The translations under genes and the position numbers were made by a program. Positions 17,704 through 46,261 of a DNA stretch of 64,000 nucleotides are shown one piece after another. Below the pieces are notes generated by a model, which had not been told where the DNA came from, searched no databases, and saw only the letters and a program-made list of their open reading frames with translations. The stretch's first letter is position 1, and each line of letters begins with the position of its first letter. Source of the DNA: Bacilli bacterium (GTDB taxonomy: Bacteria; Bacillota_I; Bacilli_A; RF39; UBA660); assembly GCA_016297695.1 (NCBI GenBank), contig JAEDGC010000001.1, positions 23,161 to 87,160 on the forward strand, in the 5' to 3' direction.

Positions 17704-17740
17704 GTATATATATTATAACAAAAATTTTTTAAAATTTCAA
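17704..17740 (-). promoter_or_regulatory. class-2 promoter, copy 3
   Basis: TTGAAA-TTTTAAAAAATTTTTGT-TATAAT upstream of tRNA-Met. Confidence 0.6.
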
Positions 17741-18177
17741 AAGTAACAAATGTAATCAACATCTTCGTCATAACTTGGAGTTTCAAAATTTTTATACATT
17801 CTTTCAATAACTGACTCAGGAACGACTCTTTGTCTATTTGAATTTCTTTCAAGAGCAGTATCAATTGGAGTTTTACAATAGCAAATTACATTATTACAAT
17901 TGTATTCTCTACCAATATCAGTAATAATTTTTCTATCTTTTTTTCGGATATTGGTAGCATCAAAAATAACATTCTCACCAAGAGATAAATAATTTCTTAT
18001 TCTTGAATAAGCAAGAGAAAAAACTTCTTTGCCATTGCCTTGAATGTTTTCATCTCCGTATAATTCTTCTCTAATGGAATCAGTTGAAACAATGTTACCA
18101 TTGAAAAATTTTGCAATTGTAGATTTACCACTTGCGGGGATGCCGCACATTATGATTAAATTCATTCTATGCTCCAC
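17737..18177 (-). CDS. polynucleotide 5'-kinase-like P-loop protein (T4 Pnk kinase-domain-like)
   Basis: Walker A GIPASGKST, then STDSIRE (D-x-x-R spacing as in T4 Pnk D35/R38), FDATNIR, and RNSNRQRVVPESVIERMYKNF (compare T4 [22 protein letters not shown]). No phosphatase domain. The real start may be ATG 18165. Confidence 0.65.
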   Translation of the reverse strand: MEHRMNLIIMCGIPASGKSTIAKFFNGNIVSTDSIREELYGDENIQGNGKEVFSLAYSRIRNYLSLGENVIFDATNIRKKDRKIITDIGREYNCNNVICYCKTPIDTALERNSNRQRVVPESVIERMYKNFETPSYDEDVDYICYF

Positions 18178-18395
18178 TTTCTAAATAAGTTGATTATTTC
18201 CTCAGAAGGTTCAGAATCAAACTCAACAGTAAGAACGCCAGATAAATCAATAGAGAAAATTCCCATAATTGACTTACCATCTACCGCATAGTGCATATTC
18301 CTAACAGTGATTCTACCATTAAACTTGTTTGCCGCATCAACAAAAGACTTAACATCATCTATTGTATTCAGCTTCATTTTAAATAAACTCTGCAT
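18162..18395 (-). CDS. HPr-like small protein lacking the catalytic His
   Basis: 77 aa. ...KLNTIDDVKSFVDAA...VDGKSIMGIFSIDLS..LTVEF... resembles the clostridial HPr-family-like proteins (from memory). Confidence 0.45.
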   Translation of the reverse strand: MQSLFKMKLNTIDDVKSFVDAANKFNGRITVRNMHYAVDGKSIMGIFSIDLSGVLTVEFDSEPSEEIINLFRKWSIE

Positions 18396-19490: not shown

Positions 19491-19616
19491 TGGTGCGGAG
19501 AATGGGATTCGAACCCACACTGAATGGATTTTTGGTGCGAAATATTGGGGTTGAACCAATTTAATGATACCGATCATTTCGCAAGTCCATTGCCTCTGCC
19601 GTTGGGCTATCTCCAC
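19491..19616 (-). tRNA. tRNA (anticodon UAA after insert removal) interrupted after U34 by a 50-nt minihelix
   Basis: GTGGAGA-TA-GCCC-AACGGCAG-AGGC-A-ATGGA-CTT[insert]AAAA-TCCAT-TCAGT-GTGGG-TTCGAAT-CCCAT-TCTCCGC-A-CCA. Confidence 0.65.
19533..19582 (-). ncRNA. nested acceptor/T-arm minihelix with CCA
   Basis: GCGAAAT-(GATCGGTATC-ATTAA)-ATTGG-TTCAACC-CCAAT-ATTTCGC-A-CCA. Perfect 7-bp acceptor and 5-bp T-stem. Confidence 0.6.
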
Positions 19617-19650: not shown

Positions 19651-19728
19651 TGGTGACGGAAACAGGATTTGAACTTGTAAAAACCTGCTCACTAAGACAG
19701 GCGTGTATGCCAATTCCACCATTCCGCC
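19651..19728 (-). tRNA. tRNA with an 8-nt anticodon loop (CUUAGUGA; UAG-type)
   Basis: GGCGGAA-TG-GTG..CAC-G-CCTGT-CTTAGTGA-GCAGG-TTTTT-ACAAG-TTCAAAT-CCTGT-TTCCGTC-A-CCA. One extra U relative to a canonical CUUAGGA loop. Class-I variable loop. Confidence 0.5.
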
Positions 19729-19735
19729 ATATATT

Positions 19736-19810
19736 ATTTGAGTTTTAACCTGTTAAACTATCAACCACCTCCATGAGGCAGTTGAGTGAGATTCGAACTC
19801 ACATTCAAAT
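19736..19810 (-). ncRNA. circularly permuted tRNA mimic (closed acceptor, open anticodon stem)
   Basis: ATTTG-AAT-GTGAG-TTCGAAT-CTCAC-TCAACTG-[CCTC-ATG-GAGG cap]-TGGTTGA-TA-GTTT-AACAGGTTA-AAAC-T-CAAAT. All tRNA helices are present, in the order 3' half, cap, 5' half. Confidence 0.55.
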
Positions 19811-20047
19811 AATATTTTTTTCGTATGGCAATGTATTAAACCTCTGCAGTGTACTTCTACAGCGTGCAACTCATACACCAACCCCATTTTCGGCTATATC
19901 CATACTTGTCCAGACAAACAACTTATAAGGAGTTGCCAACCTTCAACTTTCGTATGAGCACGGGTGAGTATCCGGACTATCACCTTTATTTTGTGCTATT
20001 AGTTATAATCCAGACTACACCACGAGGAGGTTGCACTATCGTAGTCC
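19811..20047 (-). ncRNA. about 240-nt structured RNA 5' of the permuted tRNA mimic
   Basis: R-like TCAGAGGACTACGA and S-like AAAGGTGATAGTCCGG (GGACTA/TAGTCC can pair). Long-range helix CGTGCTCATAC/GTATGAG..GCACG. GAAA loops. A CCTTATAAG...TATGG receptor-like motif. Confidence 0.4.
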
Positions 20048-20784
20048 TCTGAGTGAAGAGAATCGAACTCTTGTTTCCGGATCCAGTAAAAAATACTCTT
20101 ATAAAACAGGGAACTCCTTATATTTCCAATAATAATTATAAGCCATTTTATTTTTTGCTATGCTCTCCTTAATATATCTTATTTGTCTATCGTCAAACTT
20201 TTGTTTTAACTCTTCTGTTGTCCATAATTTTTCTTCCTCTAAATCAGAATAAGAAATAAATCTGTTATCAGAGTACTTTTTTATAGGAGTTTGAGTTATT
20301 ATTGATTGAATCACATTATCTATTAAATAATCTGAAGCGATAGACATTGTAGATTGTATTCCTTTTTTAGGTGATTTAATCCGTAAATACTTTTCAGTTG
20401 AAACTTCACCAATAGGAATTAAAAATCCGTATTCTTTCCAAGAAGTATAAAAATAATCAACTTCTTTTTCTGAATAAGTATATTTTGTTGTTTTTTGAGT
20501 ATTAGTTGTACTTCTCGTAGCAGACATTTTTAATACACCTTCATCTTCTGAATAAGAAGATGCTTTACACTGTATTTTATATAATTTATCATTAATATCA
20601 ACGATTAAATCATATCGACAAGAACCGCTAAATGGAATACTACAATAATACCCTCTTTTTTGAAAATCTAAGATACATTGGAGTTCATTTACATCGCCAC
20701 GAATTAAAGTGCTATCCATAGCAAACTGTTTTATATTAAAGTTTTTCTACCAAATCCGGGGGCTTACCTCTAACCGACACCCAG
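20048..20784 (-). tRNA. tRNA-Pro (UGG) interrupted in the anticodon loop by a 666-nt ORF-bearing insert
   Basis: 5' half CTGGGTG-TC-GGTT-AGAGGTA-AGCC-C-CCGGA-TTTGG. 3' half GA-TCCGG-AAAC-AAGAG-TTCGATT-CTCTT-CACTCAG-A. C1-G72/A73 as in bacterial tRNA-Pro. No CCA. Confidence 0.65.
20099..20719 (-). CDS. PD-(D/E)XK homing endonuclease (I-Ssp6803I-like, from memory)
   Basis: 206 aa. GDVNELQ...RYDLIVD...YKIQCK gives the E/D...QxK catalytic pattern of the intron-encoded PD-(D/E)XK family. Fills almost the whole insert in tRNA-Pro. Confidence 0.55.
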   Translation of the reverse strand: MDSTLIRGDVNELQCILDFQKRGYYCSIPFSGSCRYDLIVDINDKLYKIQCKASSYSEDEGVLKMSATRSTTNTQKTTKYTYSEKEVDYFYTSWKEYGFLIPIGEVSTEKYLRIKSPKKGIQSTMSIASDYLIDNVIQSIITQTPIKKYSDNRFISYSDLEEEKLWTTEELKQKFDDRQIRYIKESIAKNKMAYNYYWKYKEFPVL

Positions 20785-20818
20785 TTATTACATAAGGCTG
20801 TTTTTTTGTTTAACCTTA

Positions 20819-20854
20819 TGTATATATTATAACAAAAATTTTTTAAAATTTCAA
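20819..20854 (-). promoter_or_regulatory. class-2 promoter, copy 5
   Basis: TTGAAATTTTAAAAAATTTTTGTTATAATATATACA upstream of the split tRNA-Pro. Confidence 0.6.
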
Positions 20855-20855
20855 T

Positions 20856-20981
20856 TTATGCTTTATTCTGCATTTTTCTTATTCTTCTACGCAGTTTAGA
20901 AATAATTGCCGCATTTGATACTGGATCTTTCTCTGAAAGGATCCTTATTCGATTTTCATAACTTTCAATAGTTCTATTCAT
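20856..20981 (-). CDS. 41-aa basic protein
   Basis: Hand-verified MNRTIESYENRIRILSEKDPVSNAAIISKLRRRIRKMQNKA* with a GAAAGGAA RBS, downstream of promoter copy 6. Confidence 0.45.
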   Translation of the reverse strand: MNRTIESYENRIRILSEKDPVSNAAIISKLRRRIRKMQNKA

Positions 20982-45271: not shown

Positions 45272-46261
45272 AAATTTATATTTATATAATTTCAAATTTT
45301 TATAAAGGAGTTTTATAATGAGTGCAACAAATAATATAAGACATTTTGAAATTATAGATACAGAAGAAAAAGCTTATTGGTTAGGATTTTTATATGCAGA
45401 TGGTTCAGTTGGTTCTACTGATAATCGAATTGAGTTAGGATTAGCAGAGAAAGATTTAACTCATATTGAAAAGTTTAAAGAATTTATTGGAATACCAAAT
45501 AAAATTAGTTATAGACCTCAAACTAAATCTTATCGTTATTCTTTTAAAAGTATTCCTTGTAAAGAGGATTTGATAAACCACGGATGTGTACCTAAAAAAT
45601 CTTTAATCTTAAAATTTCCAACAGAAGAACAAGTTCCAGAGCATCTAATAAGACATTTTATTAGAGGATATTTTGATGGAGATGGTTGGTTTAGCAATAC
45701 TTCCTCTTGTTTCCAAGTTGGGATTATTGGAACTGAAGATTTTATAAGAGGTTTTTTAAATATAATTGATATTCAAAATAAAAGTAATAAAATTTTTATA
45801 GTACATAGAGAGCAAGGAGCTAAAAGATATGTTTTTAGTGGATTAAATGATGTAACTAATTTTTTAAACTGGATATATAAAGATTCTACAATATACTTAG
45901 ATAGAAAGTATGAACATTATTTAGATTTTATAAATAATGGAAGTAAGTATCATAAAAAAAAATAAATATAATTTGCCGTATAATATAGTAATATGTTATA
46001 TGATTACTGCGGAATTAAGCGGGAAGGCTGAGATGCTAATCCGAACCGAAGGCTATGCAAAGTATAGTCAGGGGCAACGCATAGTAGGTGAAAAGATATA
46101 ATCCTACCACGAGGCCGCAGCATAAAAGCTATAGGCTTTTTGAGATTATCTCACCAATAATCAATACCTACCGTTATAACGAGGATGAAAAGATATGCTG
46201 AGCTTATGAGAAAATGAATCATAAGAAATAAATGATAAAAAGCATTTATGATAACAAACTG
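45272..46261 (+). mobile_element. group I intron (990 nt) with LAGLIDADG ORF
   Basis: Exon 1 ends in U and the intron ends in G (46261). The 3' non-coding 300 nt contains AAGCGGGAAGG / AATCCGAACC / AAGTATAGTCAGG / AAAGATATAATCC strings. Joining 45271 to 46262 keeps the frame (…TTGG|KEQAAS…). Confidence 0.7.
45318..45965 (+). CDS. double-motif LAGLIDADG homing endonuclease
   Basis: LGFLYADGSV and IRGYFDGDGWF motifs. Own AAAGGAG RBS. Confidence 0.85.
   Translation: MSATNNIRHFEIIDTEEKAYWLGFLYADGSVGSTDNRIELGLAEKDLTHIEKFKEFIGIPNKISYRPQTKSYRYSFKSIPCKEDLINHGCVPKKSLILKFPTEEQVPEHLIRHFIRGYFDGDGWFSNTSSCFQVGIIGTEDFIRGFLNIIDIQNKSNKIFIVHREQGAKRYVFSGLNDVTNFLNWIYKDSTIYLDRKYEHYLDFINNGSKYHKKK

Follow-up and report, generated by a model that had tools for sequence, protein, structure and literature searches.

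A tRNA gene that is split by an open reading frame (ORF), with hardly any other sequence between its halves, raises the question of how, if at all, a mature tRNA can be obtained from it. This question is posed by a 64,000-nucleotide stretch of contig JAEDGC010000001.1 (in the following, the window), in which an insert of 666 nucleotides (nt) separates nt 36 from nt 37 of a tRNA-Pro(UGG) gene on the minus strand, as read from the sequence and with ARAGORN. The 5' exon (20784..20750, 35 nt, tRNA nt 1-36) has the sequence CTGGGTGTCGGTTAGAGGTAAGCCCCCGGATTTGG and ends at G36, the anticodon T34 G35 G36 occupying 20752-20750. The 3' exon (20083..20048, 36 nt, tRNA nt 37-73) has the sequence GATCCGGAAACAAGAGTTCGATTCTCTTCACTCAGA, runs from G37 to A73 and does not encode CCA. 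The intervening sequence (20749..20084) is largely taken up by an endonuclease ORF (20719..20099; 621 nt, 206 amino acids plus stop), which leaves 30 nt upstream and 15 nt downstream, 45 nt in total, as non-coding sequence. The intron ends read TAGAAAAAC...TTTTTTACTG, and the exon junction after joining is CCCCGGATTTGG/GATCCGGAAAC. From the joined halves ARAGORN predicts a canonical 71-nt tRNA-Pro(tgg) with C1-G72, A73 and the anticodon loop TTTGGGA. With introns allowed, the program also recovers this gene, interrupted by an intron of 666 nt, sets the junction 2 nt upstream and calls the tRNA Gln; in default mode it missed the split gene in the window, as did the Rfam tRNA model. No other tRNA-Pro was found by ARAGORN in the tRNA array of the window. 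A first-pass annotation had already described the split gene, the lengths of insert and ORF, the C1-G72 pair, A73 and the anticodon loop, and had pointed to the roughly 30 and 15 nt around the ORF as leaving little space for a ribozyme; ARAGORN, the minus-strand coordinates and the measured flanks agree with that description. This anatomy of the split gene is practically certain.

The same layout recurs elsewhere. Scans of IMG/VR and JGI metagenomes together with contig look-ups yielded about 60 loci, and in 36 distinct ones, covering eight anticodons, the ORF lies inside the anticodon loop of a tRNA gene, all of them split between nt 36 and 37. Pro UGG accounts for 24 cases, Pro CGG for 2, Arg ACG for 4, Asn GUU for 2, Thr UGU for 3, and Lys UUU, Gln UUG and Glu UUC for 1 each; this placement is the sole one common to all Pro cases. 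The inserts fall into length classes of 465-506, 665-672 and 763-780 nt, of which the ORF occupies all but a few tens of nt. Short inserts (463-506 nt) carry an ORF of 137-146 amino acids, the nuclease domain alone, and 36-60 nt of non-coding sequence. Joining at nt 36 and 37 restored a canonical tRNA in all 36 split genes, with every stem and loop kept, while their endonucleases have diverged to 33-86% identity. The split genes come from gut and rumen metagenomes and from one cultured Enterococcus phage. Because the layout recurs in 36 loci, a chance arrangement is excluded; the feature is real and recurrent, and its structure is well supported. Among GenBank phages, blastn with the window region gave no match, and a protein search gave a single one, Enterococcus phage EFP01. 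A protein-pattern scan of bacterial and archaeal genomes (GTDB) returned no relatives, and no intron-less allele of the window's tRNA-Pro was found in IMG/VR.

Judged from its sequence, the encoded protein belongs to the I-Ssp6803I family, as the first-pass annotation had suggested. It matches Pfam PF11645 (PDDEXK_5) with an E-value of 2.9e-23 and 82.9 bits against a curated cutoff of 26.1, and it matches PDB 2OST, which is I-Ssp6803I and the sole solved relative, at 1.7e-6 by sequence; the predicted fold gives a Foldseek E-value of 1e-5 and a TM-score of 0.65 to the same structure. The PD-(D/E)XK domain comprises residues 6-132. Residues E12, D37, D41, Q50 and K52 align with 2OST and are invariant in 14-16 homologues; the metal-binding E/D/D/Q-K motif is kept, and no His is invariant. 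Comparison with EndA by Foldseek returned weak, fold-level matches only (E 0.5, 45 columns). Nearly all of the 224 database homologues are 205-207 residues long. The C-terminal 70 residues are conserved and have no Pfam match, although a DNA-binding repeat of phage homing endonucleases had been suspected there; a single-sequence model was of low confidence (predicted local distance difference test score 53). A free-standing homologue, L004 (such handles denote individual loci of the collection), retains the whole protein including this C-terminal region; the region thus codes for protein and not for a hidden RNA. An in-frame TAG is present inside the endonuclease ORF of L057 (10001-10621), L014 and L017, and the window copy has none. 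In L014 and L017 it falls on the conserved Gln of the ELQC motif; the phages carrying these three copies thus read TAG as Gln.

The cultured example allows the insert to be compared with closely related intact alleles. In EFP01 (Schiekvirus), a 463-nt insert splits tRNA-Asn(GUU) (L188 1414-1949, corresponding to KY549443.1, approximately 105242-105777), and the enclosed gene product gp109, annotated as 'hypothetical protein', matches PDDEXK_5 at 1e-27. An intact, annotated tRNA-Asn is present in about 60 sister Schiekvirus genomes, the insert being found in 1 of approximately 66 related genomes. The exons are identical to those of EFP01 in EFGrNG and phiSHEF16, the two relatives that were compared base by base. 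Comparison of CTGTT/AACCAGT with the intact alleles permits one placement of the junction, which fixes it between nt 36 and 37. Such presence and absence at an otherwise identical site is what a homing element would be expected to leave. Within the long family the mean identity is 0.77 for introns and 0.71 for exons, with a correlation of r 0.07, and between the window and L057 the intron is 86% identical and the exons 64%. From these sequence comparisons the element is in all likelihood mobile. The split tRNA-Asn is unannotated in both the GenBank and the RefSeq record of EFP01, where the endonuclease is annotated from an internal ATG; the DNA polymerase, terminase and recombinase genes of this phage are each split by HNH endonuclease genes.

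Apart from the protein, the insert carries one recurrent structure, a rod formed by its ends. The 5' strand of the rod (20726..20752, minus strand) consists of the anticodon TGG, TAGAAAA (helix 1), A, CTTT, AA and TATAAAACAG (helix 2), as delineated by covariation on 12 introns and a minimum free energy fold. The 3' strand (20084..20109, minus strand) consists of CTGTTTTATA, which comprises the last ORF codons plus stop, followed by AGAG, TA, TTTTTTA and CTG, the last of which pairs with the anticodon. In the window, T34, G35 and G36 thus face G, T and C, the final three intron nt; TAGAAAA pairs with TTTTTTA, CTTT with AGAG, and TATAAAACAG with CTGTTTTATA. Helix 1 runs through i1-i7, and helix 2 is built from the 5' untranslated region and the final ORF codons, the stop codon of the ORF sitting inside the rod. 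Without the anticodon stem the rod comprises 24 pairs, and about 25-30 base pairs (bp) including it. That the insert ends can pair (GTAGAAA with TTTTTAC) had been noted in the first-pass annotation, and the pairing proved to be real and longer; the pairing of the final three intron nt with the anticodon, and the second helix with its use of the last ORF codons, had gone unseen.

Comparative evidence for the rod was obtained from both families. In the long family (12 introns), 91.7% of cells are paired compared with 72.6% after shuffling, and 16 of 29 pairs vary on both sides; the observed values were reached by none of 500 shuffles, and slid registers gave 43-52%. The short family (11 introns) has 97.5% of cells paired compared with 77.8%, with variation on both sides in 14 of 22 pairs. 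For the anticodon and the final three intron nt, 102 of 105 cells are paired over 35 curated junctions with eight anticodons, the shuffled mean being 70 and the maximum 83, and at these junctions the helix goes on for at least 4-5 pairs beyond the triplet. A mini-precursor in which the ORF interior was replaced by GAAA is predicted to fold as a cloverleaf with a continuous rod (-46.4 kcal/mol, z -5.85). The internal loops differ between families (A/CTTT/AA with AGAG/TA in the long one, G(A/C)GATTT with TCTAA(G/A)A in the short one), and this motif follows the protein clade, not the tRNA type. No intron nucleotide is conserved across all families, and some rods, for example that of L013, are almost perfect duplexes. 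Both junctions are on a single helix, separated by 3 bp and next to a 2x2 loop of nt 32, 33, 37 and 38. Cuts as implied by the exon sequences would leave 3-nt 3' overhangs; a 3-nt stagger is implied for every tRNA type, and a few Pro cases also permit 1 nt, never 2. No ORF-less or decayed copies were seen among approximately 40 loci and 224 proteins. A pattern search for ORF-less rods (AACTTTAATA...TAAGAGTA) gave at least 120 chance matches in AT-rich DNA, and among the matches listed none lay in a tRNA; ORF-less copies may therefore still exist.

Several further observations concern individual loci. At L063 (1400-2194), exon and rod strand on the 5' side match those of L026, those on the 3' side derive from another intron and tRNA, and the two sides are unpaired; the locus is a recombinant, or else a chimera assembled at a contig end. 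L008 (1400-1500) contains an intact, odd tRNA with A33 (anticodon TGG) and, 28 nt downstream, a free-standing endonuclease homologue, and in L003 (2940-3680) the same A33 tRNA type is interrupted between nt 36 and 37. A trailer motif, AGAC/GGCC-NN-TACAGCAA, is found 3' of otherwise differing split tRNA-Pro genes in L029, L036, L037, L042, L045 and L047.

Which catalyst could remove the insert? An ordinary group I intron with its core hidden in the ORF would be in line with what is known of the homologous I-Ssp6803I, which sits in a group I intron of a cyanobacterial tRNA-fMet, and with the fact that ORFs sometimes extend into group I cores. A codon alignment of 14 intron-borne ORFs shows mild synonymous constraint at codons 7-27, and there is a long-range match GAACTCC/GGAGTTC, both of which could be taken in its favor. 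However, the alignment contains no core-sized block, and an Rfam scan of 19950-20900 at E ≤ 10, including the cmsearch with RF00028 that the first-pass annotation had suggested, detected no ribozyme, group I or otherwise, within the insert. RF00028 and the other Rfam ribozymes were likewise absent from the relatives at the gathering score (20 loci) and at E ≤ 1 (12 loci), and the EFP01 insert had no ribozyme match at E ≤ 10. The final base of the 5' exon varies with the tRNA (G in Pro, Arg and Gln, C in Glu, U in Asn, Thr and Lys), and the intron closes with G, A, T or C. With neither a core nor a constant 5' splice-site U nor an invariant final G, the insert lacks the features of group I introns. 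Instead of the approximately 200 nt or more of structured RNA typical of group I members, the non-coding part measures 45 nt for the window insert and 36-60 nt for the short versions, whose 463-506 nt are filled by the nuclease-only ORF. The C-terminal region of the long proteins is kept in the free-standing L004 and is hence protein-coding. A hidden group I core is accordingly given next to no credence.

A second possibility is a new, very small self-cleaving or self-splicing RNA, in which the rod, perhaps with the tRNA body, would make 2',3'-cyclic phosphate and 5'-OH ends that are sealed by RtcB or by a kinase plus a ligase. Genes that would fit such chemistry, and also the ligation step of the protein-dependent reading discussed below, are present. 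EFP01 has genes for an RtcB tRNA-splicing ligase (gp162; PF01139, 3e-59) and for several metallophosphoesterases, and no Rnl-type ligase was found among 10 further proteins of this phage. RtcB is not among the 30 ORFs scanned in the window, which is part of a genome, but a polynucleotide-kinase-like P-loop kinase (17737..18177, minus strand; Pfam AAA_33 3e-24; PHROG 505 'polynucleotide kinase' 6e-22) lies inside the tRNA array and, by its sequence, is a candidate end-healing enzyme. In L057, a metallophosphoesterase is located near the split tRNA. Both RtcB and the kinase take cyclic-phosphate and 5'-OH ends as substrates, a hint that the chemistry may involve cyclic phosphates. Genes of the RtcB and kinase type are also common anti-defence tools, and the repair genes are permissive evidence, not proof.

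The phages may, moreover, already place ribozymes beside tRNAs. A hepatitis delta virus (HDV)-like, theta-type candidate (19983..20047, minus strand; RF02682, 21.5 bits, E 0.19, gathering score 44) begins one nt after A73 and could make the 3' end of tRNA-Pro. A second HDV-like candidate (15027-15083, minus strand; RF02682, 30 bits, below the gathering score of 44) likewise begins one nt after the 3' end of a tRNA-Gln. Theta ribozymes adjoining phage tRNA 3' ends are an arrangement described in PMC10879173, where theta-ribozyme phages are also reported to be enriched in RNA ligase and CCA-adding enzyme. A self-sufficient RNA inside the insert would also account for the invasion of unrelated phages. 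Against it, the families share no conserved nucleotide outside the tRNA, their internal loops are different, some rods are near-perfect duplexes, one of the cuts would fall inside a helix, which is unfavorable for in-line attack, and no Rfam ribozyme was matched in the window, 12 loci and EFP01. Because conserved unpaired nucleotides are missing, a shared small ribozyme is disfavored, and we consider a new ribozyme of this kind quite improbable.

Known routes of excision by proteins were compared with the junction geometry. The bulge-helix-bulge motif was rejected, as there are no two 3-nt bulges with a 4-bp helix and the junctions lie on a continuous helix. Excision by RNase III does not fit either: a duplex of at least 20 bp is present, but RNase III cuts leave a 2-nt overhang and the implied 3' stagger is 3 nt. 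RNase P and RNase Z, with the rod as an acceptor-stem mimic, were rejected because the cut would fall between nt 33 and 34 or two extra nt would be left, and because the distance from junction to internal loop varies between families (8-10 bp). Excision at the DNA level by the endonuclease was rejected since the junction overhangs would not be complementary and the G.T pairs of the rod indicate RNA. Finally, a switch of the anticodon by splicing at the other side of the triplet, giving CUA or CUG, was rejected because nonsense anticodons would result in the Arg, Thr and Lys cases. The first-pass annotation had left three options, an overlapping ribozyme, a dead gene and protein-dependent splicing. 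The negative Rfam scans, the splice-site bases and the synonymous sites speak against the first, the second is weakened by the 36 canonical tRNAs among 36 split genes, and the third is now the best supported.

The element consists of a PD-(D/E)XK gene with about 45 nt of structured ends, placed precisely at the boundary of nt 36 and 37 in a phage tRNA gene, and rod and endonuclease are its only conserved cargo. With moderate confidence, we propose that it is a mobile, ribozyme-free intron that is removed by a protein endonuclease and resealed by an RNA ligase; that the tRNA is functional is probable. In the proposed scheme, the encoded endonuclease would cut intron-less tRNA genes in the anticodon loop, and the element would spread by homing. 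The precursor tRNA would fold as a cloverleaf with a rod in which the junctions face each other with a 3-nt stagger, and a protein endonuclease, not a ribozyme, would cut 3' of nt 36 and 3' of the final intron nt. The anticodon loop would then be resealed by an RNA ligase, the phage RtcB in EFP01 and kinase-dependent healing and sealing in phages of the window type, and the freed intron with its paired ends could act as the mRNA of the endonuclease. Since the element enters unrelated tRNAs in phages of different hosts, it must use something universal or carry the activity itself. Candidates for the cutter would be a universal host nuclease acting on double-stranded RNA or tRNA, or the protein encoded by the intron. 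Pairing with the anticodon follows the identity of the tRNA across the eight anticodon types, and recognition of a shape by a protein endonuclease followed by ligation is the most economical reading.

A number of points weigh against this proposal. Every functional step in it is inferred, and we know of no bacterial or phage endonuclease that cuts at these positions. As read from the exon sequences, the 3-nt 3' stagger does not match the 2 nt left by RNase III, and there is no bulge-helix-bulge motif. No RNA ligase was found among the 30 ORFs scanned in the 64-kb window, itself a part of the genome, and RNA-repair genes are common in phages without such inserts, which makes their presence weak evidence. 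The intact exons could in part reflect recent insertion into working genes and not selection, and the EFP01 insert looks, from the sequence comparison, like a recent invasion.

Some of these points would suit a selfish, unspliced insert, in which the endonuclease gene homed into a dispensable tRNA and inactivated it, and the rod either stabilizes or regulates the mRNA or the transcript is merely cut into halves. Phage tRNAs are often dispensable, EFP01 alone among approximately 66 related genomes could have taken a recent neutral hit, and a stop codon within the rod suits translational control. On the other hand, the tRNA stems and loops are all intact in each of the 36 split genes despite the 33-86% identity of their endonucleases, and the last three intron nt follow the anticodon through eight types, which a stem for mRNA stability would not require. 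Furthermore, the window copy is the only tRNA-Pro of its array and retains the 3' ribozyme candidate. An unspliced insert is judged unlikely.

A variant of the proposed protein-dependent excision would make the element self-sufficient: the intron-encoded endonuclease would also cut its own precursor tRNA, and a phage ligase would reseal it. The anticodon stem with the triplet formed by anticodon and anti-anticodon would then mimic a half-site and the center of the DNA target. DNA cuts by the I-Ssp6803I family have a 3-nt 3' stagger around the anticodon, like the stagger deduced for the RNA. The absence of ORF-less or decayed copies from the loci and proteins surveyed favors this variant, as does the loop motif that follows the protein clade. 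It is nonetheless highly doubtful. If true, protein-only tRNA splicing would be documented for the first time in the bacterial world, and the element would form a living link from homing endonucleases to the PD-(D/E)XK-related splicing endonuclease of archaea and eukaryotes.

The surroundings of the split gene contain further unusual features. A GH25 muramidase in the window points to a bacterial host, and the host of EFP01 is Enterococcus. Near the kinase lies a gene for a Ro/TROVE-like RNA-binding protein (13369-14823, minus strand; DUF2828 plus DUF7788; PHROG 850, 4e-101), and the start of the kinase gene is overlapped by a 77-residue ORF (18162-18395, minus strand) that appears HPr-like by eye and has no PHROG match. 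At 19494-19616 (minus strand), a tRNA (Rfam 43 bits; ARAGORN Ala tgc with a 50-nt intron) contains an ORF-less, mini-tRNA-like insert with a 7-bp acceptor-like helix (GCGAAAT/ATTTCGC), a T-arm (ATTGG TTCAACC CCAAT) and ACCA; it departs from the anticodon-pairing rule at nt 36 and 37 and resembles the tRNA-in-tRNA of Lak phages. At 15620-16560 (minus strand), an HNH endonuclease ORF (15683-16474) separates what seem to be two pieces of a single tRNA-like gene: a 5' piece that starts with GGCGGCA... near 16556, and a T-arm with TGCCGTT-ACCA near 15647-15620. The two halves of the acceptor are complementary, the ORF sits outside the anticodon loop, and ARAGORN makes no call. A non-coding region of about 250 nt (19729-19982, minus strand), located between the ribozyme candidate and the following tRNA, ends in a T-arm-like hairpin (GTGAG TTCGAAT CTCAC) and an acceptor-like 3' strand; no matching 5' strand was found for it, and neither Rfam nor ARAGORN made a call. 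Next to it, at 19651-19728 (minus strand), ARAGORN predicts a tRNA without assigning its type, the anticodon having four bases (tagt; Rfam tRNA 44.8 bits). An ORF with a LAGLIDADG domain at 45318-45965 (plus strand), in the block of structural genes, may be a mobile element, an intron or free-standing. The tRNA arrays of relatives (L030 2226-2804; L018 2972-3417; L001 4980-5336; L021 287-378; L039 821-931) contain ROOL RNAs (312 and 166 bits), a transfer-messenger RNA (71 bits) and weak YrlA-like Y-RNA matches.

No endonuclease-bearing, ribozyme-less tRNA intron of a phage was described in the full-text literature searched, subscription journals lying outside its coverage. Protein-dependent tRNA splicing is regarded as an archaeal and eukaryal trait, and to our knowledge, protein excision and rejoining of tRNA introns are not known for bacteria or their viruses. 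Thus, if the insert is spliced, it represents a new splicing route in the bacterial domain, and EFP01 with its about 60 intron-less relatives makes the question testable in the laboratory. As tRNA finders miss such genes, phage tRNA repertoires and analyses of codon usage are incomplete. Introns in the tRNAs of Lak megaphages were termed 'enigmatic', phage tRNA introns having been previously unreported (Devoto et al. 2019, PMC6784885). Like the element studied here, they sit in tRNAs of gut phages and fit no Rfam class, but they are short and ORF-less, one of them being tRNA-like, and no endonuclease, rod or anticodon-pairing rule is described for them.

The intervening sequences of bacterial 23S rRNA, removed by RNase III, share the insertion into a stable RNA, the long stem and removal without a ribozyme by a host enzyme, as may hold here. 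Some of them carry an ORF. However, they have a 2-nt stagger and no homing endonuclease, in contrast to the homing endonuclease and inferred 3-nt stagger of the phage insert, and the 23S rRNA fragments function unligated. A tRNA with a nicked anticodon loop, by contrast, would have to be ligated. The split tRNAs of Nanoarchaeum equitans resemble the phage case in that halves are joined via complementary flanks at or near the anticodon loop; they differ in being separate transcripts with a bulge-helix-bulge motif, where the phage gene would give one transcript with an ORF between the halves.

The closest relative by protein is the I-Ssp6803I intron of cyanobacterial tRNA-fMet, which likewise combines a PF11645 endonuclease with a target in a tRNA anticodon loop. 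It is inserted after nt 36, and its endonuclease leaves 3-nt 3' overhangs around the anticodon. Yet that intron is a self-splicing group I ribozyme with the ORF in a loop, and the phage element has no core, no 5' U and no terminal G, while the proteins of the long phage family have an additional C-terminal region of about 70 residues. The element is outside both the group I and the bulge-helix-bulge intron classes. With the archaeal bulge-helix-bulge introns in tRNA, and in rRNA with LAGLIDADG genes, which are spliced by EndA and RtcB, it shares a coding mobile insert whose paired ends present both junctions, as well as the pairing between anticodon and intron, and RtcB is available at least in EFP01. 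The archaeal introns lie at position 37/38 and have bulges, in contrast to position 36/37, a continuous helix and bacterial hosts in the phage element, and EndA is not known to us from bacteria. The loss of the ribozyme from a group I intron that becomes protein-dependent has been proposed as the origin of the archaeal introns, an idea cited in PMC6125680. If spliced, the phage element would be a natural example of that step. By analogy, it would work most like an archaeal, protein-spliced intron that carries an endonuclease gene, with another junction geometry.

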